In this document: positions 39,510 to 58,712 of the stretch, in pieces
Layout: every line of letters begins with the position of its first letter
How positions within the stretch are numbered: position 1 is the stretch's first letter
Origin: Oscillospiraceae bacterium
Lineage (GTDB): Bacteria > Bacillota > Clostridia > Oscillospirales > CAG-272
Assembly (NCBI GenBank): GCA_015063725.1
Contig: SVTP01000001.1
Coordinates: 38,410 to 102,409, forward strand
DNA: 64,000 nucleotides
Reading direction: 5' to 3'
The notes under the pieces: model-generated
What the model was told of the DNA's origin: nothing
Databases searched by the model: none
Seen by the model: the letters and a program-made list of their open reading frames with translations, nothing else
Program-made: the position numbers and the translations under genes

Positions 39510-40052
39510 TTGCTTTGCGAAAAATGCAAAAAAAGGACGGCTACCGTCTTTTACAATGAAAATCTCAACGGAAAGGTGCGATCCTACTCCCTTTGCGGCG
39601 AATGTGCCGCAAAATTGCACGAAAAGGGGGATATTGGAGATATTACCTCGATGCTTGGCAGCTTTGCCGATCCCTTTTGCGATCTACACGAAAACCTCTT
39701 TGGCGGCTTTTTTGGCATGGGTCCGCATACTGCCGTCAGCGGCAAAAAATGCCCCGACTGTTCCTCTACCTTTGCGCGCATCCGTGGGAGCGGTCGCGTA
39801 GGTTGCCCCACCTGCTATCGCGTCTTTGCCGAAGAGCTCGCACCAACGCTCCATACCGTTCACGGAACCACCACACATACGGGAGCAGTTCCTGCCCGTC
39901 ATCGCGCAAGACGTGCCAAGGCAGAGCGGCTCAAGCTGCTCAAGCGGCAAATGCAAGAGGCGATTGCAAAGGAAGATTTTGAGGTTGCCGCAACGCTTCG
40001 TGACGAGATCAAAAGCCTTGAAGACAACAAAAGAAAGGAGAGTGAAGCATAA
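39510..40052 (+). CDS. mcsA: protein arginine kinase activator McsA (UvrB/UvrC-motif, zinc-ribbon protein)
   Basis: 180 aa. Two CxxC pairs at the N-terminus, further CPDC/CPTC, and a C-terminal UVR motif (EDFEVAATLRDEIKSL). TTG start. Adjacent to mcsB. Confidence 0.88.
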   Translation: MLCEKCKKRTATVFYNENLNGKVRSYSLCGECAAKLHEKGDIGDITSMLGSFADPFCDLHENLFGGFFGMGPHTAVSGKKCPDCSSTFARIRGSGRVGCPTCYRVFAEELAPTLHTVHGTTTHTGAVPARHRARRAKAERLKLLKRQMQEAIAKEDFEVAATLRDEIKSLEDNKRKESEA

Positions 40053-41065
40053 TGGCTTGGTATAACACAACAGGACCTCTATCCGATACGGTCATCAGCT
40101 CGCGTGTGCGGCTTGCAAGAAACATAAACGGCTACCCCTTCCCCTCCCGTTTGGATGCCAATAACGCAAATGAGATCATTGAAAAGGTCTCTGCACCTTT
40201 GGAGAATGCAGGATTTCGGCGCATCAATTTTTCGGATATTTCCCCTATTATGGCAACGTCTTACGTAGAACGCCACTACGTCAGCCCCGAATTTGCCACC
40301 ATGGAAACACCGCACTCACTCCTTTTGCAAGAGGCAAACGGCTGCGCCGTAATGCTTTGCGAGGAGGATCATTTGCGCATACAGGCTATTCTTTCGGGAC
40401 TTTCTTTAGAAGAAGCTTACAAAAACGCCTCGGAGATTGAAAAACGTCTGGATGCCGATTTTGATTTTGCTTACAGTGACACGCTTGGCTATCTTACCCA
40501 CTGCCCCACCAACCTTGGCACGGGGATGCGTGCATCGGTAATGATGTTTCTGCCCGCACTCTCACGCGGCGGCTATATCGCATCTCTTGCCGCACAGCTT
40601 GCAAAGCTCGGTCTTGCCATACGCGGTCTGTTTGGCGAAGGCAGCGGCAGTGCGGGATGTATGTATCAGATATCCAATCAGATCACGCTCGGCGTGACGG
40701 AAAATGAGATCCTCTCAAAGCTGACCGAGGCGGTCAGACAGATCAGCGAGAGTGAAATGCAAGCGCGCAAGAACATTCAAGAGGACGCACTTGAAGCTTT
40801 GACGGATAAGGTTGGGCGATGTGTGGGCATACTAAAGCATGCTTATATGATTGGCACTGAGGAGTTCATCAGGCTCTTTTGTGAGGTACGGCTCGGCATC
40901 TCCAAAGGTCTTGTTTCGGGCATTACCTACGAGCAATTGGGCACACTTTTGGTAGAGGCGATGCCTGCCACCCTGACACTTTCCTCGGAGACAACTCCCA
41001 AGGGAGAAGTAGCACGCGACAAGCTCCGCGCCGCACGCATCAAGGCGGTCCTTGATGCCTCATAA
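40052..41065 (+). CDS. mcsB: protein arginine kinase McsB (ATP:guanido phosphotransferase)
   Basis: 337 aa with SSRVRLARNINGYPFP, CPTNLGTGMRASVM and a GEG...IS.Q.TLG-type region. Start overlaps the mcsA stop (TAATG). Confidence 0.93.
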   Translation: MAWYNTTGPLSDTVISSRVRLARNINGYPFPSRLDANNANEIIEKVSAPLENAGFRRINFSDISPIMATSYVERHYVSPEFATMETPHSLLLQEANGCAVMLCEEDHLRIQAILSGLSLEEAYKNASEIEKRLDADFDFAYSDTLGYLTHCPTNLGTGMRASVMMFLPALSRGGYIASLAAQLAKLGLAIRGLFGEGSGSAGCMYQISNQITLGVTENEILSKLTEAVRQISESEMQARKNIQEDALEALTDKVGRCVGILKHAYMIGTEEFIRLFCEVRLGISKGLVSGITYEQLGTLLVEAMPATLTLSSETTPKGEVARDKLRAARIKAVLDAS

Positions 41066-41086
41066 CACGCAGAGAAAGGATAGCAA

Positions 41087-43537
41087 ATGAAGAACAGATT
41101 TACGCAAAAAGCACAGAATGCGCTCAACTTTTCACTCGGGAGTGCATCGGACATGGGACACACCTACATTGGCTCGGAGCATCTTTTGCTCGGTCTTTGC
41201 CGTGAGGAAAGCGGTGTTGCCGCACACTACCTGCAAAGCCGAGGGGTTGATGCCGAAAAGGTGAAGAGTGCCATCATCCGTTTGGCAGGTGCGGGCGTCC
41301 CTTGCGAGGTTTCGGCAACCGATATGACACCGCGCACCAAAAGCATTATTCAGGCATCCTTTGCCGAGGCACAAAAGTGCGGTCAGGAATTGATCGGCAC
41401 CGAGCATTTGCTCCTATCCATCTTGCGCGAGCAGGATTCTGTGGCTGTGCGTATTTTGGAGAGCTTTCATATCTCTGTCAGCGATCTTTCAAGTGATCTT
41501 GCCGCTTATATCGGTGCTTCCCCCACTCTTGAGGGAGCAATTCCTATCAAAAATAAGACAGCAGAACGAAAAAGAGACAGTGTTCTCTCCTCTACTCAGG
41601 CACTCAAAAGCTATGCCCGAGATCTTTGCGAGCTTGCTGCGACGGGTAAGATTGATCCCGTGATCGGGCGCGATGGGGAGACAGAGCGGCTCATTCAAAT
41701 TCTTTCAAGACGGCAAAAGAACAATCCGTGCCTGATTGGCGAGCCGGGCGTTGGCAAAACCGCGGTCGTTGAAGGTCTTGCCACGCGGATTATAAGGGGG
41801 GATGTTCCCGAAAATCTGCTTGATAAAGCCGTGGTAACGCTTGACATCGCCTCTATGATCGCAGGTGCAAAATACCGCGGCGAGTTTGAAGAACGCTTTA
41901 AAAACGTGATGGAAGAGGTGCGCAAAAACCCGAATATCATTCTCTTTATTGATGAAATCCACACCATCATCGGTGCGGGAGCCGCCGAGGGAGCGGTGGA
42001 TGCCGCCAACATCATCAAGCCTGCCCTGGCACGCGGTGAATTGCAGGTGATCGGCGCAACCACTACCCCCGAATACCGTCGCCACATTGAAAAGGATGCG
42101 GCACTTGAGCGACGTTTTCAAGCTGTAACCGTAGGTGAACCCTCACGCGAGGATGCTTTGGCGATCCTTTTGGGGTTGCGTGAACGGTATGAGACGCATC
42201 ACAAGCTCAAAATTTCAGACGAGGCGCTTCGAGCTGCGGTGGAGCTTTCCGTCCGTTATATTGCCGATCGCTATTTGCCCGATAAAGCCATTGATCTGAT
42301 TGACGAGGCAGCATCGCGTCTGCGGATCCGCGCACACACCTCCCCCGACGGCATCAAAGCCAAGGAAGAAGAGCTTAAAGCGGTCTCACGAGAGAAAGAA
42401 ACGGCGATCCTTTCGCAAGAATTTGAAAGTGCCGCCGCTTTGCGCGATAAGGAGCAAGCCTTGAAAAAGGAGATCGAGGAAGAAAAACAGGAGTGGCGTT
42501 CTGCGCAAGAATCCAAAGAACTCTCTGTCAGTGAAGCGGACATTGCCGAGGTCGTTACACAATGGACAGGCATCCCCGTGCACAATCTTTTGAGTGAGGA
42601 AGAAGAACGTCTGCTCCACCTGGAAGAACATTTGAAGGCGCGCGTAATCGGTCAGTCGGATGCGATCGGTGCAGTTGCAAAAGCGATTCGACGCGGTCGC
42701 ATTGGGCTCAAGGATCCACGCCGTCCCATAGGTTCCTTCATTTTTATGGGACCGACGGGCATTGGCAAAACCGAGCTCGCTCGCGCGCTTGCCTTTGTGA
42801 TATTTGGGAGTGAGAGTGCGATGATCCGCCTTGATATGTCGGAATATATGGAAAAGCACAGTGTTTCCAAGCTCATCGGCTCCCCTCCCGGCTACGTCGG
42901 CTTTGATGAGGGCGGACAGCTGACCGAAAAGATACGCCGCAAGCCCTATTCGGTGCTTCTGTTTGACGAGATCGAAAAAGCGCATCCCGACGTATTCAAC
43001 ATCCTTTTGCAGGTGCTTGAGGACGGACATTTGACCGACTCGCAAGGGCGGCAGGTAGATTTTAAAAACACCGTCATCATCTTGACCTCAAACGTCGGTG
43101 CATCGGATCTTTCTGCTACAAAAACGCTTGGATTTGTCTCCGACTCTGCCGAGAGCGAGAAGAGCGAACGCCGCGAGAAAATGATGCGTGCATTGCGGTC
43201 GACATTCCGCCCCGAGTTTCTCAATCGAGTGGATGAGGTGGTTGTTTTTAACAGTCTTTCAAAAGAAGATATCACCTCTATCGCGCGCCTGATGCTGGAA
43301 GATGTGGTGGAGCGTTGCAGGGATATTGGCATTTCCCTTTCCTTCTCCCCGGCGGTTGCGGAGCTGCTTGCCGCCAAGGGATTTGATGAGAGCTGGGGCG
43401 CACGCCCCTTGCGCAGAACGGTGATGCGTCTTGTGGAAGACAGACTTTCCACCGATCTTTTAGAGGGGAAATTCGCCAAAGGTGACAGCGTTTTGGCAGA
43501 CGTAACCGATAATGAGATCGTGTTTGAGAAGAAGTAG
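41087..43537 (+). CDS. clpC: ATP-dependent Clp protease ATP-binding subunit ClpC
   Basis: 816 aa. Clp_N repeats ([14 protein letters not shown] / [10 protein letters not shown]), two Walker A motifs ([16 protein letters not shown]), a UVR-like middle domain, and an LGF ClpP loop. Confidence 0.95.
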
Positions 43538-43647: not shown

Positions 43648-45861
43648 ATGATGAAAAGAAAGTCCAAAAAGCTTGTGCTGGCGCTGGTTTGCACTCTGCT
43701 TGCCGTATGTCTTGTTGGCGGTGTTATTCTGGTTGTCAGTGGAAACACTCGCTATTTTGAAGGCGAGGCAGAAGAATATTATCAATCTCTTCTTTCCCAA
43801 GGCTTTCCCGAAGAATATGCGCGCCCCTTAACGGAGTTACATCTGCTCCACCCCGAATGGAGCTTTACTCCCCTGCTCATTACCGAGGGCAATTCCCTTT
43901 ACCGTTGGGATTACGTCATCGATCAGGAAACCAAGGATGCCGAAACCAATTTGATCTCGGGCAATGACGACTATCGCGCTTACCGTCATGCAACCAATAA
44001 AGAAACCTATGATTCGGGCTACTATCAGGCATCGGTTGCGGCTGTTAAATACTTTATGGACCCGCGCAACTTTTTGAATGAAACCGACATCTTTCAGTTC
44101 TATGATCTTTCTGCCGCGCACACTGTCGGCATCGAAGAGGTCGAGGCAGTGCTTGTTGGCACGTTTATGAAGGATGCCACCTTGGAGAACGGCAAGACCT
44201 TTGCCGAATACTTCCTTGAGGTGGGACAGGCACTTGACGTCAATCCCGTTTATCTTGCCGTAAAAGCACGTCAGGAGCAAGGCGGCGACGGCATCTCTCC
44301 CGTTCTTGGCGGCAAGTGCGGCACGCTCCTTGCCGAGTATTATGAGAACGGCACGCAAACCTCCGAGAGCGGCAACAAGGTCCTCGCGCCCAGCGAAGGT
44401 TACACCGCCGAGGAACTCAAGGCGCTGGACGGCTACTACAATCTTTTCAATATCAAAGCAAGCGGAAACGGTCTGTTTGCCATTTATTACAATGCCATGA
44501 AGCGTGCTCAAAGCGGCACCGAAGATATGGCAGAAGCTTGGGGCTCCCCCGCTTGGGATACTCTTTGGAAGTCCCTTTGGGGCGGTACATATACCATTAA
44601 GACAAGCTTTATCGACCGCTACCAAAACACCATCTATTTGCAAAAATTCAACGTTGACAGTCGCGCATCTGACCGCAACTTCTGGGGACAGTATATGCAA
44701 AACGTGGCAGGTGCGCTGACCGAATCCCGTACCCTCTTTGGCGCGTTTGCGTCGTCGGGGGTTCTTGACGGACCTTGTAGCTTTGTCATTCCCGTTTATG
44801 AAGGGATGCCAAGTAAAGCTTGCGCCGATCCCGCAGGCGGACGTTGCTCCTATCTTGCCACCGCACCCGAAAAGTATGAAAGCTCCGCTTTCTTCTCAAG
44901 TCCCATTCTGCAAACGAGCAAAACCACCATTTATGATACTTTGCGCGTGCATAGCGATGACTCCATTCATCTTCGTGGTATTATGACACACTCCTACGGC
45001 GTTTTGCGCATTGAGTACCGTTGGGACAGCGGTGAGTGGCAAACACTTTGCGAGGGTGACAAATTTGACGTCAAGCTCCCAATCGAATTTGAGGTCGATA
45101 CCACTCACATTCTCACTCTGCGCACAATTGCAGGCTATGACCACACCGAGAGCACCAAAAAGTCGAATTGGTCGGTGTTGTCGGCAGTCTTTTACGTCAA
45201 CGTTGTGGAACGTCCCAAAATCAACATTTCCATTGAAGATAATGAAAACAAGACCGTAACTCTGCACCGAGCGGGAACGGCTTTTACCCTGCCCACCTGT
45301 GAGGAAAAGAATTTTGTTGGCTGGTACGGCTCGGATAATACCCTGATGCCCTCGGGCGGTGTGGTCTCTCCCGAGGCGGACGTTACCTACACGGCGCTTT
45401 ATATGCGCTTTGAGCAAATGCGCGGCGCTGCTTTAGTCTTTCCCGAGGATGAAACACATCTGCGCTTTTATGCCGCTGCCGAGATGGCTACTCTTGATAA
45501 AATTTCCGCAACGAATGCAACCGTTTCCTTTTTTGCCACTGTTGTGAGTGAGAACGGAGCGGAAGAAACCACTCCCGTAATGCTTGGCGGAAGCGAGGAT
45601 GCCTTTGACACTGCATGGCGCACTCTTTCGGCTGACACGAAAGCTCTTGACAAAAATTCTTATCACGCAAATTATTCTATGCGCTTTTGGGCACTTTACA
45701 CCTACTCGGACGGTAGTGTGCAAGCTTTTATGCCCGACGGCATATACTGTCAAAGAAGTGCGGCAGAGGTTGCAACCGCTGCCCTTGCGGATACGACAGT
45801 ACAATATGACAATGACATTATCGAACACCTGATGCAGATCGTGTCCGAGACGAACACTTGA
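43648..45861 (+). CDS. membrane-anchored N-acetylglucosaminidase-like cell-wall hydrolase (COG4193/GH73-related)
   Basis: 737 aa with an N-terminal TM. GFPEEYARPL..LHLLHPEWSF, YFMDPRNFLNETDIFQF and NPVYLAVKARQEQG resemble the glucosaminidase family, from memory. Confidence 0.6.
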   Translation: MMKRKSKKLVLALVCTLLAVCLVGGVILVVSGNTRYFEGEAEEYYQSLLSQGFPEEYARPLTELHLLHPEWSFTPLLITEGNSLYRWDYVIDQETKDAETNLISGNDDYRAYRHATNKETYDSGYYQASVAAVKYFMDPRNFLNETDIFQFYDLSAAHTVGIEEVEAVLVGTFMKDATLENGKTFAEYFLEVGQALDVNPVYLAVKARQEQGGDGISPVLGGKCGTLLAEYYENGTQTSESGNKVLAPSEGYTAEELKALDGYYNLFNIKASGNGLFAIYYNAMKRAQSGTEDMAEAWGSPAWDTLWKSLWGGTYTIKTSFIDRYQNTIYLQKFNVDSRASDRNFWGQYMQNVAGALTESRTLFGAFASSGVLDGPCSFVIPVYEGMPSKACADPAGGRCSYLATAPEKYESSAFFSSPILQTSKTTIYDTLRVHSDDSIHLRGIMTHSYGVLRIEYRWDSGEWQTLCEGDKFDVKLPIEFEVDTTHILTLRTIAGYDHTESTKKSNWSVLSAVFYVNVVERPKINISIEDNENKTVTLHRAGTAFTLPTCEEKNFVGWYGSDNTLMPSGGVVSPEADVTYTALYMRFEQMRGAALVFPEDETHLRFYAAAEMATLDKISATNATVSFFATVVSENGAEETTPVMLGGSEDAFDTAWRTLSADTKALDKNSYHANYSMRFWALYTYSDGSVQAFMPDGIYCQRSAAEVATAALADTTVQYDNDIIEHLMQIVSETNT

Positions 45862-47747: not shown

Positions 47748-47832
47748 ACTTTTGGACTTTTTTCAATATTTGCGTAATGTCTCCCATCCGATTCTCGTTT
47801 ATTATAGTGAAGGACAAAAAAGGAGAAGAATC

Positions 47833-48588
47833 ATGAAAAGAATTACATCTATCTTACTTTTACTCACTACAATTTTATCAAGCATCCTGTTTACCGCTTG
47901 CGGGCACGAATGCACACTTGCCGAGGGGTGGAGAAACAATACGACTTCCCACTGGCACGCCTGCACCGATCCCGATTGTACCAAGCAAACAGATCTTGCA
48001 AACCACACATGGGATGTTGGCGTGATCACCAAGCGTGCAACGCAAGAAGCTCCCGGCGTAAAAACCTTTGTTTGCACCGAATGTATGTATCAAAAAACAC
48101 AAAATGTTGCTTTTCAAGGTCTGACCGAAGAAGAGTGGAACACCGCACTTTCCTCTGATCTGTTTATAAACTTCACCTGCAGTGAAAGAACAGTTTTGAA
48201 AAAAAGCGGAATGGAGATCGTCTCCATTATGACATATGAATTTGAGCAAGGAAAAGGTAAAATTACCGAAACCATTGCCGGTGAAACAGCATCGACTCTT
48301 CTTCCTCTTGAGAATCTTTCCGGATACCGCCAGGCAATTTGGATGTATTTGAGAATGATGACTGACTACCAAGATTACTACTACGAGGCAAGAAGCAAAT
48401 CCTACAAGCTCAAGGGCGTATTTACCGTTCCCACCTATGAGGTTCCGGTAGATACTGCGTCGGTTAAGTTCAAAAACGGCAGACTTTCGGAGATTTCCTA
48501 CACCTGCAAAGTTACCGTAGAAGGAACAATCTATTATCTGACCTCTACAATCAACGTCACCAATTACGACACCACCAAAATCAGTTGA
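47833..48588 (+). CDS. lipoprotein, unknown function (paralogue 1 of a tandem pair)
   Basis: Start at ATG 47833 (AAGGAGAAG RBS). Lipobox LFTA-C. SHWHAC...ANHTWDVGVITKRATQEAPGVKTFVCTEC is shared with the next gene. Confidence 0.75.
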   Translation: MKRITSILLLLTTILSSILFTACGHECTLAEGWRNNTTSHWHACTDPDCTKQTDLANHTWDVGVITKRATQEAPGVKTFVCTECMYQKTQNVAFQGLTEEEWNTALSSDLFINFTCSERTVLKKSGMEIVSIMTYEFEQGKGKITETIAGETASTLLPLENLSGYRQAIWMYLRMMTDYQDYYYEARSKSYKLKGVFTVPTYEVPVDTASVKFKNGRLSEISYTCKVTVEGTIYYLTSTINVTNYDTTKIS

Positions 48589-48638: not shown

Positions 48639-49448
48639 ATGAAAAAGATTACATCTATTATTTTGTTGCTCGTAATGCTTTTGAGCATGGCAATTCTTTC
48701 GGCATGTACCCCGGCTCACAAATGCACCCCCGATGAAGAATGGACATATGATGAAAATTCTCACTGGCACAAATGTGCAGAGCTCCCCTATGTAGAGCTT
48801 TTCGGCATCTCGTATATGGACCTTTTGAAAGCATCCTGCGCAGAAGTCTTTGACAAAGCCGATCACACTTGGGATGCCGGCACAATCACAACCCCCGCTA
48901 CACAAGAGGCTGACGGCATAAAGACCTTTACATGCTCCGTTTGCAACGGCACAAAGACCGAGCCCATTCCCTTTACCGGTATGACAAAAGAAGAATGGAA
49001 TGCTGTATTTGATGCAAAGCAGTTTGAAAACTTTACTTATACCGAGACCTCCGTTCTCAAAACGACCGGTATGGAAATGGAAACCGTTACTACTTACGAA
49101 TTTGAAAAGGAAAAAGCAAGAGCAACCGCAACCATTGCAGGTCAAACAGAAACTCAAAGCTTTGCCGCTGCTCAAGCAACCATACTCCGTTCCAATCTGT
49201 TGACCTCTCTTGAGCCTTTGGTGAAGTTTGAAAACTTCCGTTACGATGCAGCCACCAAATCCTACGTCCTCAAAGGCATCGTCATAATTTCTGCCCTGAA
49301 CGTAAAGGCTGACACCATGACACTGACGTTTGAAGATGGAAAACTGGTAAAGATGGTTTACACCTGCAAGATCACACAAAACGGCATAACCTTTGATGTA
49401 ACCTCCACTGTTCTCTTTACCGACTACGGCACCACCGTTGTGAAATAA
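48639..49448 (+). CDS. lipoprotein, unknown function (paralogue 2 of a tandem pair)
   Basis: Lipobox ILSA-C. SHWHKC...ADHTWDAGTITTPATQEADGIKTFTCSVC. Collinear similarity to 47833..48588 along the whole length. GAGGAG RBS and a shared terminator. Confidence 0.75.
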   Translation: MKKITSIILLLVMLLSMAILSACTPAHKCTPDEEWTYDENSHWHKCAELPYVELFGISYMDLLKASCAEVFDKADHTWDAGTITTPATQEADGIKTFTCSVCNGTKTEPIPFTGMTKEEWNAVFDAKQFENFTYTETSVLKTTGMEMETVTTYEFEKEKARATATIAGQTETQSFAAAQATILRSNLLTSLEPLVKFENFRYDAATKSYVLKGIVIISALNVKADTMTLTFEDGKLVKMVYTCKITQNGITFDVTSTVLFTDYGTTVVK

Positions 49449-49461
49449 TGAAAAACAAAAT

Positions 49462-49493
49462 AAAAAGAGCACTTCAATTGAAGTGCTCTTTTT
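49462..49493. terminator. bidirectional terminator between the lipoprotein pair and tsf
   Basis: AAAAAGAGCACTTC-AATT-GAAGTGCTCTTTTT. Confidence 0.8.
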
Positions 49494-49510
49494 ATTTATT
49501 GTAGAAAAAA

Positions 49511-51382: not shown

Positions 51383-51676
51383 TTAATAGCGAATTCCCTT
51401 TCTTTTGGGGCGCGGACAGAGGCAATAGGACAGATCGGCAGGCGAAAGCCGCACCAAAATCGTGTCCTCGCCAAAGCATTCGATCTTATTCCAAGGAATG
51501 ATGATGTCATCTTCCCTCCCCATTCCAAACAGTCCGTCGCTCCCTGCAATCACAAGAGCCAGAATTTTAGCATCCTCACAGTCAAATTCAAAGTCGCTGG
51601 CGCAGCCAAGTCTGGTTCCGTCGCAGAGATTGATGATCTCCAATTTGCGCAAATCGTTGGTACTCCATCGTTTCAT
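51383..51676 (-). CDS. YlmC/YmxH family (PRC-barrel) sporulation-associated protein
   Basis: LRKLEIINLCDGTRLGCASDFEFD..ILALVI...IIPWNKIECFGEDTILV. ATG 51676 follows an AAAGGAGAG RBS. Confidence 0.85.
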   Translation of the reverse strand: MKRWSTNDLRKLEIINLCDGTRLGCASDFEFDCEDAKILALVIAGSDGLFGMGREDDIIIPWNKIECFGEDTILVRLSPADLSYCLCPRPKRKGIRY

Positions 51677-51730
51677 CACAAAATCTCTCCTTTATCGGTT
51701 TCTACTGCAATTCTATGCAGGAGGGGGAGA

Positions 51731-54445
51731 TTATTTGGCTGTCCGACCTAAAAAAGGCACCAAAAGATTTAAAATAAAGTAAAGCGCAGGGGTAAGTGGC
51801 AACAAGCACGCTGTCAGAGCAGTCCATGCGCCCATTCCTGTGATGGCTCCTACGGGGGCTATCAGGACAGACAGAAGGATGAGTACTGCCAAAGCGCCAA
51901 CCGAGATACCGCAAATCAGCAAGGTCTTTTTGGTTTCAGGTCTGACCTGTGCGCGGTATGCGATGCGAGACAAAACACAGATTTGCAAAAGCAGCAAGGA
52001 TACAAAGAAATAGGTTCTTATAGATTCCCGCGGCAAAACACCAACAAACGCAAGGATCACGCAGGTCAAAGCCGGAATTGCAATAGAGAGAATGCTCGGA
52101 ATCAGCAATTCTTTTGCGAAAAGTGTGCCAAAGAGGAACGTTTTATCCGTTGTGTTAGGACGTCTCAGGACCGATTGTGAAAGCGGAACATCGGAGAGGA
52201 AGTAGAGTGCCGCTATTTCGATAGCAAAACCCGAGAGGAACATTTGCAAGCTTGAGAAGAATCCGATCCCGGTACAAACCGCAAAAAGCATCAAAACAAT
52301 ACGCGCAAGCTGAGAGTGCAACCAGAATTGCAACAGCATTTGTGTTCGCACCTCTACCTCGCGACTGTGCGAGATGGTTTGAAGTGCGGCATAAGTGCCG
52401 CCTGCAAAGCGGTCGGCGCGCTCAATGATCACGTCGGCATGTCGGCGCAGCGTTTGTGATGTATTGCGACTCCCCTCCCTTCCCTCTTCGTCAGCTCCCT
52501 CACGGATGTTCTCCTCAGCATACTGCTTGAGATCAGTAACGGTATCGCAAGCAAAGGTGAGGATACCTGCACGCAAAAAGCAACGGTCATCGCTATTTCC
52601 GCCAAGTACGGCTATGCGGTGTCCGCTCTTCTGCAGTGTGGGCAGAAGAGCGGAAAGTTCCTCTTTGGAGAAGCCAATAAAGGTTCGGTGATTTTGCAAA
52701 AGAGTGGGGGTGAGCTTGGGATGCTCATCATTGCAATAGAGATAGGGCTCGGGCAAGTGGCAAACCTTGGCGTAATCGTCATCGGATAGGAAAAAGCGTG
52801 TAGGAATGCCCGAAAGAGCCAATTCCTCAACAACTGATGGCAACACCATACTCACTTCTTCACGCAGTGCAACAACACCTACAAGGGCGAGTGTTCCCTC
52901 GCCTCTTTCAGTTGCGATGCAAAGTGCACGGCAGCCGTTTTCTTTAATGTAGTTACAGTACTTCCGCAAGGTAGCGCGGTATTCGGGGGTAATCGCACGC
53001 ATCCGCACGCCGTCGGCATACAAAACACATTGGCGCAAAAGACTTCCGCTACTGTCAAAGAGATAACGCTTGCTTCCCTCTTGCAAAGTCGCCGTTACGC
53101 ATTGCCACGAGGGGTGATTGGGATATGTATCACCCTCGACTGCCTGTGTGCGAACCCTGAGTGCACCGACATCAAATCGGCAAAGCGAGGTGAGTTCGGA
53201 AAGGAATACCGTGTCAGATTCAGAAGAACCTGAACCGTTTGTGGAAGGCATACGCATATCCAACTCGTGACGCAAAAGCATTGCCTCGCATAAGGGGTAC
53301 AGATCGCTCTTTTCCCCCTCAGCATCTGCGCGGATCTCTTTATTTGCTACAAAAGCAGACCAAAAATGGGTAATGCCATCGCTAAGACCGCGCTTGCCGA
53401 TAACAAACAGATCGGTAACGCCTGCAAGCTTTTGCACACCACCCTCAGACTTGATAACTGCGCGATTTTTGGGCGGATTGTTCTCAAGGCACAACAAGCG
53501 GCCTCGAACAGATACCCAATGCAGATACAGGGAAAGCGTAGCAGGTGAAGATACGCCAACAAGAACGCAAAGAATAAAGAAATACTCGGCAAGTCCTCCC
53601 TCGGTGGGTGTTGTGAACAATCCGATCACGGTCAAAAGAGTTAAAAGAACAAAGGATAACAGTCCCCAAATACGCAGATAAGGACCGATCAGCCTTTGTG
53701 TGGGAGTTTGACCGTGCTTTTCTTGAATCTCCGCAGGGAGCGTAAAGGAGCGCATAGCACCCAGATAGGAGTTGAGCCCCGTAGCTACCAGAACCGCCCT
53801 TGCTTCGCCGCAAAGGATCTCTGATCCGCCAAAAAGCATATTCTCGGCAAGCGGTGCGTCCACGTGCATGCCCCATTCATAAGTGACGTCGGCACGCTTG
53901 GTATATTCCTTATAGATCGGTCTGCCTGCCTCATTTGGTAAAAGCGTCAGCACTCGCAGATCCTGCGAGGACAAAAGGCGGCAGTCTCCGGGAACAATAT
54001 CGCCGGCACCAAAAAGCAGGACGTCACCCTGAACAACGCGTGCGGCAGAAATACTGAACACTCTTCCGTCACGCAAAACGCGAACAGTCGGTGTTCGATA
54101 CTGTGCTACAGTGCGGGAAAATTCCTCGCATTTATACCAAACGCGCAGGAGGGCGAAAGTCAGCAAAGCAAAAACCACCACTGTGCATACAATTTGCAAA
54201 GGGGATAAAAACAGGATGGCGAGAAGTGCTGAGAAAAGCATCAAAAGCAAGGCAGGATCCAGCAACAAGCTCTTGATGGGCGACTTTCTTTTGGGCGCCA
54301 CATCGTCGAACAAGGGATTTCTGCCTTGTTTTTTGAAACGAGAACGAGCCGCCTTGCGGGAAAGCCCACAGGCGGCATCGGTATGCAAGCTTTGGCAAAC
54401 AGACAACGGAGTTGCCAGATGCCATCTCGAACCTTTTTCGTTCAT
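51731..54445 (-). CDS. P-type ATPase homologue (type IIA-like architecture) with all catalytic motifs degenerate: probable pseudo-ATPase membrane protein
   Basis: 904 aa. Cation_ATPase_N-like GLSRKAARSRFKKQGRNPL, A-domain LRDGRVFSISAARVVQGDVLLFGAGDIVPGD, and about 10 TM segments. However TGES is NEAG (171-174), PEGL is SPATL (300-304), DKTGT is GKRGL (350-354) and GDGVND is GGNSDD (615-620). Intact ORF with an AAGGAGA RBS. Confidence 0.8.
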   Translation of the reverse strand: MNEKGSRWHLATPLSVCQSLHTDAACGLSRKAARSRFKKQGRNPLFDDVAPKRKSPIKSLLLDPALLLMLFSALLAILFLSPLQIVCTVVVFALLTFALLRVWYKCEEFSRTVAQYRTPTVRVLRDGRVFSISAARVVQGDVLLFGAGDIVPGDCRLLSSQDLRVLTLLPNEAGRPIYKEYTKRADVTYEWGMHVDAPLAENMLFGGSEILCGEARAVLVATGLNSYLGAMRSFTLPAEIQEKHGQTPTQRLIGPYLRIWGLLSFVLLTLLTVIGLFTTPTEGGLAEYFFILCVLVGVSSPATLSLYLHWVSVRGRLLCLENNPPKNRAVIKSEGGVQKLAGVTDLFVIGKRGLSDGITHFWSAFVANKEIRADAEGEKSDLYPLCEAMLLRHELDMRMPSTNGSGSSESDTVFLSELTSLCRFDVGALRVRTQAVEGDTYPNHPSWQCVTATLQEGSKRYLFDSSGSLLRQCVLYADGVRMRAITPEYRATLRKYCNYIKENGCRALCIATERGEGTLALVGVVALREEVSMVLPSVVEELALSGIPTRFFLSDDDYAKVCHLPEPYLYCNDEHPKLTPTLLQNHRTFIGFSKEELSALLPTLQKSGHRIAVLGGNSDDRCFLRAGILTFACDTVTDLKQYAEENIREGADEEGREGSRNTSQTLRRHADVIIERADRFAGGTYAALQTISHSREVEVRTQMLLQFWLHSQLARIVLMLFAVCTGIGFFSSLQMFLSGFAIEIAALYFLSDVPLSQSVLRRPNTTDKTFLFGTLFAKELLIPSILSIAIPALTCVILAFVGVLPRESIRTYFFVSLLLLQICVLSRIAYRAQVRPETKKTLLICGISVGALAVLILLSVLIAPVGAITGMGAWTALTACLLPLTPALYFILNLLVPFLGRTAK

Positions 54446-54466
54446 AAATTCTCCTTTTATGGTTAC

Positions 54467-56794
54467 TTACATACAAAGAACGCTGATAGAGTCACCCTCA
54501 ACCGTTACCTTTGCCATACTATAGCTGTGCGTGTAGTCGGCAATGATCTTTTCGGCAAGGCGATCCTCAACTTCTTTTTGAATATAGCGGCGCATATTAC
54601 GCGCACCGAATTTGCGTGAGTAGGATGCTTTTGCAATCAGTGCCAAAGCTTCATCCGTATAAGTGAGTGCAATGGATTTTTCGGCAAGAGAGGTCTTGAG
54701 CTCCTCAAGCATGATGCGTGCGATGCTGACAAAGTCCTCCTCATCAAGCTGACGGAAGGTGATGATCTCATCCACGCGGTTGATGAACTCGGGGCGCAAA
54801 AAGCCCTCAAGAGCCTTTTGCGTTTTGCTCTCGGCGGCGGTCTGTTCGCTAACAGCAAAGCCTGCGGTAGCACCTGTGCGGTCGGAGCCTGCGTTGGTGG
54901 TCATGACAATAACGGTATTTTCAAAATTGACTGTTTTGCCGCGTGCATCGGTGATGCGACCGTCGTCAAGGATCTGCAAAAGGATATTGAGCACGTCGGG
55001 GTGTGCCTTCTCAATTTCGTCAAAAAGAACGATGGAATACGGACGGCGGCGGATCTTTTCGGTCAGCTGCCCTGCCTCGTCATAGCCAACATATCCGGGA
55101 GGCGCTCCGATAATGCGAGAAACACTGTGTTTTTCCATAAACTCGGACATATCGAGACGGATCAGCGTTTCGGGCGAATGGAAAAGCTCGTTTGCGAGCG
55201 TTTTGACAAGCTCGGTCTTTCCCACACCGGTAGGTCCTGCAAAAATAAAGGAAACAGGCTTTCTCTTGTATGCAATTCCCGCGCGGTGGCGCTTGATCGC
55301 CTTGGAAACTGCCGCAACTGCGGTATCCTGACCGACGATGTGCTCCTTGAGACGGCTCTCAAGGCGGTCAATCTGTGCAAATTCGTTCTCGGTAATGCTA
55401 GTTGCCGGAACACCCGTCCAAAGCTCGATCACATTTGCGATCTCTTCTTCGGTAAGGGTAACAGTCTGCGTTTCGGGTTCAATTTCAGCAAGGCGCTCGG
55501 AGAGCTTAAGCTCCTCGGCACGAACATTTGCAATCTCCTCATAGCGGCTCTGCTCTACCGAATCGTTGCCTGCGATCTCGCCCTCAAGCGCTTCTCTCTT
55601 TTGTTTGAGGTCAAGAAGTCTGTCGCGGATGCGATAGGACTCGTTGATGACTGCAGAGGAAAGCGAGAGTGCCGATGCGGCTTCGTCCAAAAGGTCGATC
55701 GCCTTATCGGGCAGATATCGGTCGGTGATATAGCGCTCGGAGAGCACAACGGCGCGACGCAAAACAGACTCGGGGACAATAACACCGTGGAATTCCTCGT
55801 AATAATGCTTAATGCCTGCGAGCATTTCCATCGTCTCCTCAACAGAGGGCTCATTGACGGTTACGGGCTGGAAGCGACGCTCGAGTGCGGAATCCTTTTC
55901 GATATATTTGCGGTATTCATTCAGGGTGGTGGCACCAATGATCTGTACCTCGCCGCGTGAGAGTGCGGGCTTGAGGATATTAGCGGCATTCACACTTCCC
56001 TCTGCATCCCCTGCACCAACGATATTGTGAACCTCGTCAATAACAAGAATGGCATTGCCAACGGCGTTGACCTCTGCCAAAAGACCGAGAATACGGGATT
56101 CAAACTGTCCGCGGAACTGTGTGCCTGCTACAAGAGCGGTCATATCCAACAGATAGATCTCTTTGCCTTGAAGCTTGTAAGGAACGTTACCGGATGCGAT
56201 GCGGATCGCAAGTGCCTCGGCAATGGCGGTCTTACCGACACCGGGTTCACCAATGAGGCATGGGTTATTCTTTTGTCTGCGGCAAAGAATTTGAATGACG
56301 CGCGAAAGCTCGCGATCACGACCGATGATCTGATCAAGCTTTCCCTCGCGCGCATATTGCGTGAGATTGCGACTGTATGTTGGCAAAAACTTAAGCTTTT
56401 TTTCTTCTTTTGCCCGCTTTTTATCGGATTTTTTATCGTTTGGATTGGCTTTGGGAGCATCGGGCAGATTGCCGTCAGGCTTTTGCGCAAAGAGTCCCGC
56501 ATCGCGGAAGAGCTTGGGGAGATCGATCGCAGGTGCACCGCCATCCTCGTTGTCGTCCGCATCGGAAGGAGTTTCGGTGTTTGCAAGCATTGCGTTGATA
56601 TCATCCTCGGCTCCCTCGAGCTGCTCGGGAGAAATGCCAAACTGACCCATAACGTTGCCAACGAGATTATCTACGGGCACGCCCATCTCTTTGGCACATT
56701 TGAGGCAGAGCCCCTTTGTGCTCTTTTCGCCGTTTTCCATTTTGGTCACAAATATAACTGCCATACGCTTATGGCATTGTGAACACATTACCAT
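54467..56794 (-). CDS. clpE: ClpE-type Hsp100/Clp ATPase (N-terminal zinc ribbon instead of Clp_N repeats)
   Basis: [12 protein letters not shown]...[11 protein letters not shown] zinc ribbon, two AAA+ modules ([16 protein letters not shown]) and an AGF ClpP-loop-like tripeptide. Start uncertain. ATG 56794 is preferred because the GTG 56839 alternative lies inside the hairpin at 56829-56860. Confidence 0.85.
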
Positions 56795-56828
56795 GGGAAT
56801 AAATGAGTCCTTTCTTTGGGATTTTTTG

Positions 56829-56860
56829 AAAAAGCCCACCGAAGAAACGGCAGGCTTTTT
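56829..56860 (-). terminator. intrinsic terminator after cvpA, only ~35 nt upstream of the clpE start
   Basis: Minus strand: AAAAAGCCTGCCG-TTTCTT-CGGTGGGCTTTTT, a GC stem with two G:U pairs and an A5/U5 clamp. Confidence 0.6.
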
Positions 56861-56889: not shown

Positions 56890-57456
56890 TCAGGAGAAAA
56901 GATTACCCAAGAATTCAACAATAACCGTTTGCGAATAGATAACATCCTTAACATCCAAGAACTTGATGATGGAAGCAATAACAACGAGAACGATAGCGCC
57001 CATTACAGTACCGAAGATACCACCGAGAACATGGTTAGCGGTGCCGAGAATAGCAATCTTATCGGTGATCTTGGTCAGAAGCCAGCCAACGATAGCGAGT
57101 ACGATGAATGCCAGAATGAAGACCAAAACGTAACCGATAAGGTTGGAAATAATACCGGAAATCGATTGAGCCAGAGGAAGAACGCCCTCTTCTACCGTGC
57201 CGGGAGCGGGACGGAGAAAATCGGGCAACTTATCAGCAGCTCCCATACCTGTTTTATTCAACCAATCGTAAACGGGTTGGAAAACGAAACGGTCTTTGAT
57301 GAATTGACCTGCGATAGGACCTACAAAATATGTGATAAGGATGGCGAGCAGGAACTTAGCAGACTGGATCAAGCTCTTGATAAAGCCTCTTTTTGCGCCT
57401 ACTGCAATAAAGATCACAGCGATAAGTACAAACAGAATGTCGAGAATAAGTGGCAT
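56890..57456 (-). CDS. cvpA: CvpA family membrane protein
   Basis: MPLILDILFVLIAVIFIAVGAKRGFIKSL is a typical CvpA N-terminus. Four TM helices. ATG 57456 follows an AAAGGAG RBS. Confidence 0.85.
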   Translation of the reverse strand: MPLILDILFVLIAVIFIAVGAKRGFIKSLIQSAKFLLAILITYFVGPIAGQFIKDRFVFQPVYDWLNKTGMGAADKLPDFLRPAPGTVEEGVLPLAQSISGIISNLIGYVLVFILAFIVLAIVGWLLTKITDKIAILGTANHVLGGIFGTVMGAIVLVVIASIIKFLDVKDVIYSQTVIVEFLGNLFS

Positions 57457-57482
57457 AATTAAAATCTCCTTTTTAAAAATTT

Positions 57483-58712
57483 TTATGTGCGGAAGGTTAT
57501 GTAAACTGCCTTTTGCGGCGAACAAAGCAAAATCTCTTTGTCATCCAAGGCAAGCAACCTTTTACCGTCCGTTGCATATTCCTCAAAAGCGATCTCACCG
57601 CTTGCTATGTCAAGTCGGCTCACGCCGGCGTGATCGGTCCAGAACAATGCTCCTTCCCGATACGCAAGATCGGTAATGCTTTGCGGAATAACATCATTAT
57701 ACACTATTTTTCCGCTTTTGTCAAATATAATTATTATATTTTTTTCAGAAATTGCAGTTTTTTTCAAGCAAAGTGCCACACCGTCGCCCGAAAGGTCGGC
57801 AGTTGTGGGGATCTTCCCCTCAAAATCATGGAAAAACTCGACCTCCCCGTCAGCCGAAAGGTATGCCACCCCTGTGGTACAGAGGACTGCAAGCTTACCC
57901 GACTCGGTAAAATGGCACTGCATTCCCATAGAGGATGCGATCACATTTTCGGAGATAGAACTGCCCTTGCCCGGCTCTGCCAGCATTACAGAGGTAGAAA
58001 CGCCCCCCTTATTGGGCGTTACCGTCAAAATTGCGATGCGGTGACCGTCTGCCGAAATGGCGGCATCCAGCACGTTTCCGCCTTTTTTGTAAACGTTGAT
58101 GAGCGCAAATCGGTTGTTATAGAGATATACGGCAGAATTGGCATCACTCGCTGAGGAAATGATGGCGTACATGCCCGAATCCGAAATTGCCGCACCTGAA
58201 ATGGGATATTCCGTCTCACCTGCATGCATTTGCGTGTTGGCATTGTAAAGCGAGTACTGTTTGCCGCCACGCTCGTATACCAAGAGATATTTGCCCGAGC
58301 CTACGGCTACAGGATCGTTATACTGAATACCGTGGCTGACAAGCTGACGTCCCGTTGCCGAGAAGATGGTCACACCTGTATTCCCTGCCACCGCCAAGCC
58401 CTTGCGGTAGAGCGTAAAACTCTGCTCCTCATCGGTAGAATAAGAAAGAGAATCGTGCGAAAAGATATCCACACGCTCAGCAGATGCGTTCAGATCTTGA
58501 AAGAAATGATAAAAATTCTGGTAAGTAATGAGATTTGTGTTTGTTAAAAAGGCAAACACCACGAATGCAAACAAGGCAAGATAGAGGATGACTTGAAGAA
58601 TGCCCAGCCCTGCCGAGATATTTTCATAGTATTCATTTCCATCTTTTCCAACTGCTACCGCAGGTGCTACTGCAGATCTTGTTGCTTTGGGCTGTCTTTT
58701 TGAAAGCTTCAA
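57483..58712 (-). CDS. membrane-anchored repeat (beta-propeller-like) protein, DUF5711-like
   Basis: 409 aa. N-terminal TM (ILQVILYLALFAFVVFAFL) followed by a repetitive beta-rich region. The family name is recalled from memory only. Confidence 0.45.
   Translation of the reverse strand: MKLSKRQPKATRSAVAPAVAVGKDGNEYYENISAGLGILQVILYLALFAFVVFAFLTNTNLITYQNFYHFFQDLNASAERVDIFSHDSLSYSTDEEQSFTLYRKGLAVAGNTGVTIFSATGRQLVSHGIQYNDPVAVGSGKYLLVYERGGKQYSLYNANTQMHAGETEYPISGAAISDSGMYAIISSASDANSAVYLYNNRFALINVYKKGGNVLDAAISADGHRIAILTVTPNKGGVSTSVMLAEPGKGSSISENVIASSMGMQCHFTESGKLAVLCTTGVAYLSADGEVEFFHDFEGKIPTTADLSGDGVALCLKKTAISEKNIIIIFDKSGKIVYNDVIPQSITDLAYREGALFWTDHAGVSRLDIASGEIAFEEYATDGKRLLALDDKEILLCSPQKAVYITFRT

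Follow-up and report, generated by a model that had tools for sequence, protein, structure and literature searches.

A conserved family of predicted pseudo-P-type ATPases encoded beside ClpE-type unfoldase genes in uncultured gut Clostridia

Few enzymes have been studied as thoroughly as the P-type ATPases. Because the DKTGT motif usually serves to define and list them, an entire pump that lacks it would escape notice. The mechanism shared by the HAD superfamily and P-type ATPases requires the Asp nucleophile, the TGES loop and the residues of the KGAPE, TGD and GDGVND motifs. Here we describe a pump-like protein from which these signatures have disappeared. It is encoded in a 64,000-nucleotide stretch of an Oscillospiraceae genome (GenBank assembly GCA_015063725.1, contig SVTP01000001.1, positions 38,410 to 102,409; hereafter the window) by an open reading frame (ORF) with an ATG start and 904 codons plus stop (51731..54445, minus strand), and it has the full architecture of actuator (A), phosphorylation (P) and nucleotide-binding (N) domains and ten transmembrane (TM) helices, without the catalytic motifs. 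An earlier inspection of the letters and translations (the sequence-only reading) had proposed a pseudo-ATPase, and the alignments, profiles and predicted fold reported below support that interpretation.

The closest described systems are the type IIA pumps, namely SPCA1/PMR1, SERCA, LMCA1 of Listeria and YloB of B. subtilis, with which the 904-aa protein shares its length, domain order, ten TM helices and unwound M4 as well as the signatures GLSxxxAxxRxxxxGxN and GDxVPxD. By structure the nearest pumps are SPCA1 and SERCA, and by sequence they are SPCA1 and LMCA1. Unlike these pumps, the pseudo-pump has no phosphorylated Asp, no TGES, KGAPE or DPPR, and little of TGD or GDGVND. At the cation site it also differs from them, with Ala for the M4 Glu, Gln and Arg for the M5 Asn and Glu, and Gly for the M6 Asn.

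A precedent for other uses of a P-type body is the Na,K-ATPase, which has a non-pumping role as a membrane platform for protein-protein interactions (PMC6152704). The Na,K-ATPase is catalytically competent and its scaffold role is additional, whereas catalysis in the pseudo-pump appears to be genetically abolished and the protein forms a conserved family of its own. A second parallel is mitochondrial Tim50, a HAD-superfamily pseudophosphatase whose HAD/Rossmann fold no longer has the nucleophilic Asp and has been kept for binding at a membrane machine. Tim50 is small, crosses the membrane once, has a domain like that of FCP1 and partners a translocase, whereas the pseudo-pump has ten TM helices with A, P and N domains and a proposed AAA+ partner.

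That proposed partner, encoded directly upstream, shares the hallmarks of the ClpE proteins of Bacillus, Streptococcus and Lactococcus: a zinc ribbon at the N-terminus, where Clp_N is absent, a pair of AAA modules and a loop for ClpP. These known ClpE proteins are soluble and are not known to have a membrane partner, and none was found described in the open-access literature; clpE of B. subtilis is controlled by CtsR. Unlike B. subtilis clpE, the gene studied here has no CtsR box and shares its operon with the gene of a dead pump. The proposed complex of ClpE and pseudo-pump would be a functional analogue of membrane-anchored AAA+ proteases such as FtsH, which differs in having a TM anchor within the same protein. 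Neither did we find a naturally dead P-type ATPase family described in the open-access literature, where absence is not proof, or any mention of dead P-type ATPases in the comprehensive 2023 review by Palmgren.

A pump body without catalytic motifs

The reading frame is intact, and a strong Shine-Dalgarno sequence, AAGGAG (54451-54456, minus strand, read from the sequence), ends 5 nt before the ATG. Both features had been put forward in the sequence-only reading and are borne out, and every residue number in it was exact when rechecked against the translation, including those of LRDGR (124-128), VVQGDVLLFGAGDIVPGD (137-154), ATGLNSYLGAM (221-231) and TPTQR (247-251). The N-terminal motif that it described is present at residues 27-43 (GLSRKAARSRFKKQGRN), with one spacer residue more than it had given.

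Alignments place other residues at each of the catalytic motifs (all coordinates on the minus strand). NEAG (residues 171-174; 53924..53935) occupies the TGES dephosphorylation loop, a column that is not conserved within the pseudo-ATPase family. SPATL (300-304; 53534..53548) stands at PEGL of M4, where the Pro is retained, Ala has taken the place of the Ca-site Glu, and the model still shows a break in the helix. At the DKTGT position lies FVIGKRGLSD (347-356; 53378..53407), of which FVIGKRGLS (347-355) aligns to ICSDKTGTLT, so that Gly350 replaces the phosphorylated Asp. DSSGS (464-468; 53042..53056) stands at the KGAPE nucleotide-binding position, ALRE (526-529) aligns to DPPR, FLSDD (552-556; 52778..52792) stands at MITGD, and GGNSDD (615-620; 52586..52603) stands at GDGVND with only the last Asp kept.

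The same positions were obtained from pairwise, multiple and structural comparisons. A phmmer search against human SPCA1 aligned residues 16-277 strongly and, in a second weak stretch, set ALRE on DPPR, FLSDD on MITGD and GGNSDD on GDGVND; a MAFFT alignment with bona fide pumps set NEAG on TGES, SPATL on PEGL and FVIGKRGLS on ICSDKTGTLT; and the full-length structural match gave the same replacements. A misaligned Asp or TGES, which the sequence-only reading had named as grounds for abandoning its proposal, is ruled out, since Gly falls on the phosphorylated Asp whether the alignment is made by profile, by family or by fold. The statement that every catalytic signature is lost holds for the motifs and fails for single residues, because PEGL keeps its Pro (P301), TGD its Asp (D555/556) and GDGVND its final Asp (D620). 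As had been noted, the protein contains no DKTGT and its sole DKT lies at 767-769; we also found no DKTG, TGE or DxT[GA] anywhere in the 904 residues. DKTGT was likewise absent from all 54 aligned full-length syntenic relatives and from the 68 degenerate hits that were screened, and the strings DKTG in locus L033 and TGES in locus L031 proved to have arisen by chance, outside the positions at which the motifs align.

Profile searches gave a consistent picture. Pfam matched Cation_ATPase_N and E1-E2_ATPase (PF00122; 61.4 bits against a cut-off of 28.1, 1.1e-16), and neither Hydrolase (PF00702) nor Cation_ATPase_C matched the 904-aa protein, so that only two of the four domains which the sequence-only reading had listed for checking were recovered. 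The general P-type model TIGR01494 scored 27.1 bits against a cut-off of 62.3, and the NCBIfam P-type subfamily models all scored 10-fold or more below their cut-offs, the PMR1-type model TIGR01522 for example at 62.6 bits against 798.3. What marks a functional P-type ATPase, namely DKTGT, TGES, the HAD hydrolase signatures, KGAPE and a score at a curated cut-off, is therefore missing. With neither an Asp nucleophile nor a TGES loop, and with few of the residues left that bind Mg and phosphate, the protein is predicted to be unable to run a Post-Albers cycle.

We considered whether a non-canonical chemistry might have taken the place of the lost one. A family-specific motif, GxxGxSDGxxH, sits exactly at the old phosphorylation site and is conserved in the window's clade, with G350, D356, G357 and H360 invariant or near-invariant, and some relatives have an Asp at the nucleophile position (L027, L029, L030 (ITDRSAFSD); P0077 (LDHSATSDG)). 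These residues would suit an active transporter or ATPase that uses another acid, such as Asp356, as its nucleophile, or a transporter driven by a gradient. We nevertheless regard this as highly improbable, since the nucleophile, TGES and KGAPE were lost together with the greater part of TGD and GDGVND, since the Hydrolase profile finds no match and since the motif residues drift freely between subclades, unlike those of an alternative active site.

The fold, in contrast to the motifs, is predicted to be complete. An AlphaFold2 model, for which 46 family sequences were used, reaches high confidence along its whole length (pLDDT 86.7, pTM 0.85) and has ten TM helices, with M4 broken at S299-P301 (helices H285-298 and H301-320). 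Foldseek returned full-length matches to SPCA1, SERCA, Na,K-ATPase, MgtA and LMCA1 (probability 1.0, E ~1e-33) at 14-18% identity, with TM-scores of 0.58-0.66 for the best matches. The comparison with pump structures that the sequence-only reading had recommended thus yields a complete type II pump fold closest to SPCA1 and SERCA, and by homology and modelled fold the protein falls within the superfamily of P-type ATPases.

Within this modelled fold the former Ca2+ site has been rebuilt. In M5, HSQLAR (residues 690-695; 52361..52378, minus strand) carries Arg695 in place of the cation-site Glu equivalent to E771 of SERCA, and most of the 54 syntenic members have SQxxR/K at this point versus NxxE in true pumps. 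In M6, GFAIE (residues 739-743; 52217..52231, minus strand) keeps the acidic residue equivalent to D800 of SERCA, and an Asp or Glu is retained there family-wide. With Ala for the M4 Glu, QxxR for NxxE in M5 and GxxxE for NxxTD in M6, Ca2+ occlusion would not be possible, and Arg695 and the M6 acidic residue likely pair in a salt bridge within the membrane and so fill what was once the cation site.

Family, selection and descent

A search of 5.8 billion proteins recovered 77 full-length relatives (~900 aa, 30-97% identity), all without a Hydrolase domain, and the score dropped sharply from 334 to 82 bits between the family and the first true pumps. An exhaustive representative search gave 195 clusters at 50% identity with E<1e-30, and full-length matches continued without a break down to ~24% identity. 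We also scanned 185,579 species genomes with the family-only alignment and obtained 80 loci. With the exception of one cyanobacterial locus, L062, all of the DKTGT-less hits come from metagenome-assembled genomes (MAGs) of uncultured gut Clostridia, Eubacteriales or Oscillospiraceae, from hosts that include ruminants and humans and from bins with names such as "Eubacterium sp. CAG:180", Ca. Flemingiibacterium and Ca. Colimorpha. No cultured carrier was found among the loci and clusters examined, the family loci and named copies all being of MAG or metagenome origin.

The cyanobacterial exception (PCC 7702, KB235926.1; L062:7998-10763) is a pump that reads ICSGKTGTLT, with Gly for the phosphorylated Asp and an intact GDGVND; this change reflects a sequencing error or else an inactivation of very recent date.

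Loss of catalytic motifs is the expected result of inactivation followed by drift, and relaxed selection or frameshifts in relatives had been named in the sequence-only reading as signs of a decaying pseudogene. Measured against six orthologues, dN/dS was 0.10-0.15, evenly so in residues 1-335, in the dead P/N headpiece (336-690) and in residues 691-904; less saturated pairs gave an omega of 0.21 (dS 0.08) and 0.10 (dS 0.73) in gapless 904-codon alignments. Control genes at the same loci gave 0.03-0.04 for ClpE, 0.04-0.08 for YlmC, 0.07-0.12 for DUF5711 and 0.15-0.30 for CvpA. The pseudo-ATPase gene is under clear purifying selection, which is looser than that on the unfoldase gene and typical of its membrane-protein neighbours. 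Because orthologues are full length, with frames intact in dozens of species, because ~195 clusters score at E<1e-30, because omega stays at 0.10-0.21 in every region, and because the ribosome-binding site is strong, the predicted fold confident and the synteny conserved, we consider a decaying pseudogene or an annotation artefact to be refuted.

Conservation along the protein is concentrated at one end. The N-terminal segment, matched by Cation_ATPase_N (PF00690; residues 8-75, 54221..54424, minus strand, with W8, L20, G27 and L28 invariant), has a conservation score of 0.69, and the actuator domain, which is flanked by M2-M4 within the E1-E2_ATPase region (residues 118-309, 53519..54094, minus strand, with invariant GDxVPxDCR), has a score of 0.68; scores elsewhere are 0.50-0.58. 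Across the broad family nearly all of the near-invariant positions lie within this segment and this domain (W8, L20, G27, L28, P119, R125, G140, D141, G148, D149, P152, D154, C155, R156, K183, N202, G213 and G223).

A neighbour-joining tree from Kimura distances separated 54 full-length Clp-linked proteins from 10 true pumps in 100 of 100 bootstraps. Subclades of the family are only 17-27% identical to one another, compared with 42% for true pumps from archaea to cyanobacteria and 57-95% for the linked ClpE proteins. Decay of the motifs is graded across the family; the window's clade is the most eroded, and Asp-Lys-Thr occurs at the phosphorylation site in no member. A Flemingiibacterium-like clade keeps LTG, the M4 Glu (in MSEL), CRGDA for KGAPE and IMTTD for MITGD, together with the Cation_ATPase N-domain (PF13246) and C-terminal profiles, and the best model for this less-degenerate clade is that of the PMR1-type IIA2 Ca2+-ATPases (216 bits against a cut-off of 798). 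Through the best-hit ranking of this sister clade, which is its one source of evidence, descent from a P2A Ca2+ pump is supported, and with it the type IIA assignment of the sequence-only reading. The simplest account would be that phosphorylation was lost once, long ago, in a pump that was already linked to clpE or soon became so, and that the protein then drifted under a new, weaker constraint.

Another degenerate P-type ATPase, of 876 aa, is encoded in an Oscillospiraceae MAG (GCA_031262985.1; P0094, L081:6001-8631). It has ILVGSDIFLDSS at the DKTGT position, SNKSSDNN at the GDGVND position and no TGES, and its gene is flanked on one side by a LytTR two-component system and on the other by a BofC_C sporulation-type gene plus a penicillin-binding protein (PBP) gene. 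We rejected it as a member of the same family, since it has no clp neighbour, a different context and ~17% identity, and we treat it as a separate degenerate lineage. This group of bacteria may have evolved pseudo-pumps on more than one occasion.

Linkage to a ClpE-type unfoldase and a possible joint role

The pseudo-pump gene belongs to a syntenic block with the order DUF5711 - cvpA - clp - pseudo-ATPase - ylmC - rpsB - tsf. Unlike the genes of true pumps, it adjoins a ClpE-type unfoldase gene: a Clp gene lies directly upstream in 55 of the 56 evaluable degenerate loci, an arrangement that holds down to ~20% identity, whereas none of the true pumps recovered (n=11) has a clp or ylmC neighbour. 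The sequence-only reading had asked whether linkage to clpE and ylmC is a constant feature of the degenerate form; the link is essentially constant for clpE and partial for ylmC, which lies directly downstream in 40 of 55 loci. Most distances from the Clp stop to the pump start fall between -10 and +30 nt, overlaps of 4 nt are frequent, and in the window the distance is 21 nt. A terminator scan of the window found none in the gaps between clpE and the pseudo-ATPase gene or between the latter and ylmC; weak terminator-like matches fall within the ORFs of clpE (55199-55186) and the pseudo-ATPase (54097-54081, 54031-54017 and 52902-52881). The pseudo-pump gene is thus predicted to be co-transcribed, and often translationally coupled, with clpE.

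The partner in the window is a ClpE-type AAA+ unfoldase of 775 aa (54467..56794, minus strand), identified with Pfam, NCBIfam and a motif survey. A mechanical ORF call of 54467-56839 (790 aa from a GTG at 56839) probably overshoots by 15 codons; we place the start at the ATG at 56794 because orthologues begin with MxMC three residues before the zinc ribbon, and in L083 the gene is called as 775 aa. The protein has an N-terminal Cys4 zinc ribbon of 30 residues (56696..56785, minus strand, motif survey), the Pfam domains AAA, AAA_lid_9, AAA_2 and ClpB_D2-small without Clp_N, and an AGF ClpP loop at residue 659. All 49 of the Clp partners surveyed have the Cys4 zinc ribbon, intact Walker A and B motifs in both modules and an xGF loop. 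NCBIfam holds no curated ClpE model to score against; judged by its domain architecture, the partner is a ClpE-type Clp/Hsp100 unfoldase, which looks active and has a putative ClpP-binding loop. Between the zinc ribbon and AAA1, within an otherwise highly variable acidic/basic linker, lies a short linear motif, GGAPAIDxPKLF (56507..56545, minus strand), that is conserved in ~50 loci and is a candidate docking peptide for a partner.

Elsewhere in the window (39510-43537, plus strand) there is a canonical operon of mcsA (UVR), mcsB (ATP:guanido phosphotransferase) and clpC (Clp_N + UVR), so the ClpE described here would be an additional, dedicated unfoldase. This operon has no ctsR gene immediately upstream, and CtsR operator-like repeats in the window do not exceed chance. 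CtsR control of the clpE operon was rejected, since a direct-repeat scan of the window gave only chance-level matches, none of them near the operon.

From these observations we tentatively favour, while holding it to be somewhat short of probable, a reading in which the dead pump is a membrane scaffold that works with ClpE and that docks or regulates ClpE, perhaps together with ClpP, through its N-terminal and actuator module. Under this scaffold model, a type IIA Ca2+-ATPase resembling SPCA, PMR1 or YloB would have kept its pump body and lost its chemistry, and its headpiece in the cytoplasm would serve at the membrane as a docking site for ClpE(-ClpP) or as its regulator, chiefly by way of that module. 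The outcome would be a membrane-tethered Clp machine for quality control of membrane or envelope proteins or for regulated proteolysis. Both the physical interaction with ClpE and the biological role of the pseudo-pump are what we infer from the conserved linkage and domain pattern. A bolder version, which we think unlikely, makes the dead Ca2+ pump a dedicated membrane receptor or adaptor for a ClpE-ClpP protease, that is, an FtsH analogue derived from an ion-pump fossil. In that version the actuator and N-terminal module would dock the zinc ribbon of ClpE or its GGAPAID linker motif, and domain movements like those between E1 and E2 might gate or present membrane substrates.

The membrane part of the protein allows a different explanation. 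Constraint on the TM regions equals that on the headpiece, and the Arg of M5 paired with the Asp or Glu of M6, together with the M4 Pro and helix break, suggests that the membrane core matters; the less-degenerate clade moreover keeps the M4 Glu and the PF13246 N-domain profile. The pseudo-pump might therefore have an autonomous membrane function, as a sensor of ions, protons or a ligand, as a passive conduit, or in envelope or spore-membrane structure, and merely be co-expressed with ClpE in a housekeeping or stress operon that also holds cvpA, DUF5711 and ylmC. The presence in this operon of two further membrane proteins and a YlmC/YmxH sporulation-family protein would fit such a role, as would the one locus without clpE upstream. 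The linkage to clpE, however, is far tighter than that to any other neighbour, ylmC included, persists to ~20% identity and often involves a stop codon that overlaps the next start; other residues stand at the canonical ion-coordinating positions, and the highest conservation is found in the cytoplasmic N-terminal segment and A domain rather than in the membrane core. We consider an autonomous function somewhat unlikely.

The same linkage data would also fit a pseudo-pump dedicated to ClpE as its substrate, decoy or inhibitor. ClpE would then bind the protein and sequester or remodel it, and the pseudo-pump would be a regulator and not an anchor, for instance one that keeps ClpE inactive at the membrane until stress. 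Tails that are specific to subclades, such as the C-terminal RTAK (residues 901-904; 51734..51745, minus strand) and other basic ends, could be recognition tags, and fast evolution fits a regulatory rather than a catalytic partner. RTAK was rejected as a universal degron or docking tail, since it is conserved only in the closer subclade with ~30% identity or more and distant members end otherwise; the tail is thus not conserved family-wide, and a 904-aa protein with ten TM helices would be a costly decoy. Although the data do not separate a decoy from the scaffold model, we regard the decoy as improbable.

Several points weigh against the scaffold model itself or the premises on which it is built. 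The loss of catalysis is deduced from sequence only, and adjacency in an operon can mean co-regulation only. At L043:188-1870, the lone evaluable exception to the linkage, the pseudo-pump has no clpE upstream and is preceded by an unrelated 560-aa ORF, with ylmC and rpsB still following it. No genuine fusion of ClpE and pseudo-pump occurs among the recovered loci; one candidate of 1249 aa (L026:1-3750) was rejected as an assembly artefact, since its ORF crosses a masked run of N. The monophyly of the family rests on 10 outgroup pumps and a neighbour-joining tree, in which long-branch attraction is possible. The pseudo-pump evolves far faster than ClpE, which is unusual for a tight obligate partner, and its TM domain is as constrained as the headpiece, which cytoplasmic docking alone would not obviously need.

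Surrounding features and meaning of the family

The remaining genes of the syntenic block are all on the minus strand. Immediately downstream of the pseudo-ATPase gene is a YlmC/YmxH-family PRC-barrel gene (51383..51679; TIGR02888, 67 bits against a cut-off of 44.2). Upstream of clpE lies the gene for a CvpA (Colicin_V family) membrane protein (56890..57525; Pfam), which is syntenic in most loci, and the block is headed by a gene for a membrane-anchored DUF5711 protein (57483..58712; Pfam and synteny). A perfect 12/12 match to the sigma-70 consensus, TTGACA-17-TATAAT (57696..57724, minus strand), is located inside the 3' part of the DUF5711 ORF and upstream of cvpA; going by this consensus match, it may be an internal promoter for cvpA-clpE-pseudoATPase-ylmC. 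The terminator scan placed a strong intrinsic terminator after tsf (49458..49497, minus strand). A part in anti-phage defence was considered and rejected, since PADLOC gave no hit for the pseudo-pump, DUF5711 or YlmC and only generic AAA hits for ClpE.

Two observations concern other genes of the window. Directly 3' of clpC is a 737-aa ORF (43648-45861, plus strand) with no Pfam family at E<=0.001. A tandem pair of paralogous lipoprotein-like ORFs of 278 and 269 aa (47752-48588 and 48639-49448, both plus strand) lies further on; both have a signal peptide, a lipobox-like Cys and, in common, the Cys/His-rich block HxWDxGxITxxATQExxGxKTFxCxxC, and neither has a Pfam match.

All of the named public copies of the pseudo-pump are labelled "cation-transporting P-type ATPase" or "Ca2+-transporting ATPase", and such mislabelling would inflate the predicted cation-export capacity of gut Clostridia genomes. 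We regard the family as a pseudoenzyme branch of the P2A ATPases that is large, ancient and under selection and that, among the recovered loci, is found only in uncultured gut Clostridia. It offers a natural experiment on which parts of a pump stay constrained without catalysis: the N-terminal segment and actuator are conserved, and the rest drifts to 17-27% identity yet the predicted fold is kept. For the ClpE-type unfoldases, whose partner or adaptor has long been missing, the pseudo-pump is also a concrete candidate that can be tested, and the two together could prove to form a membrane-tethered Clp system of a new kind.

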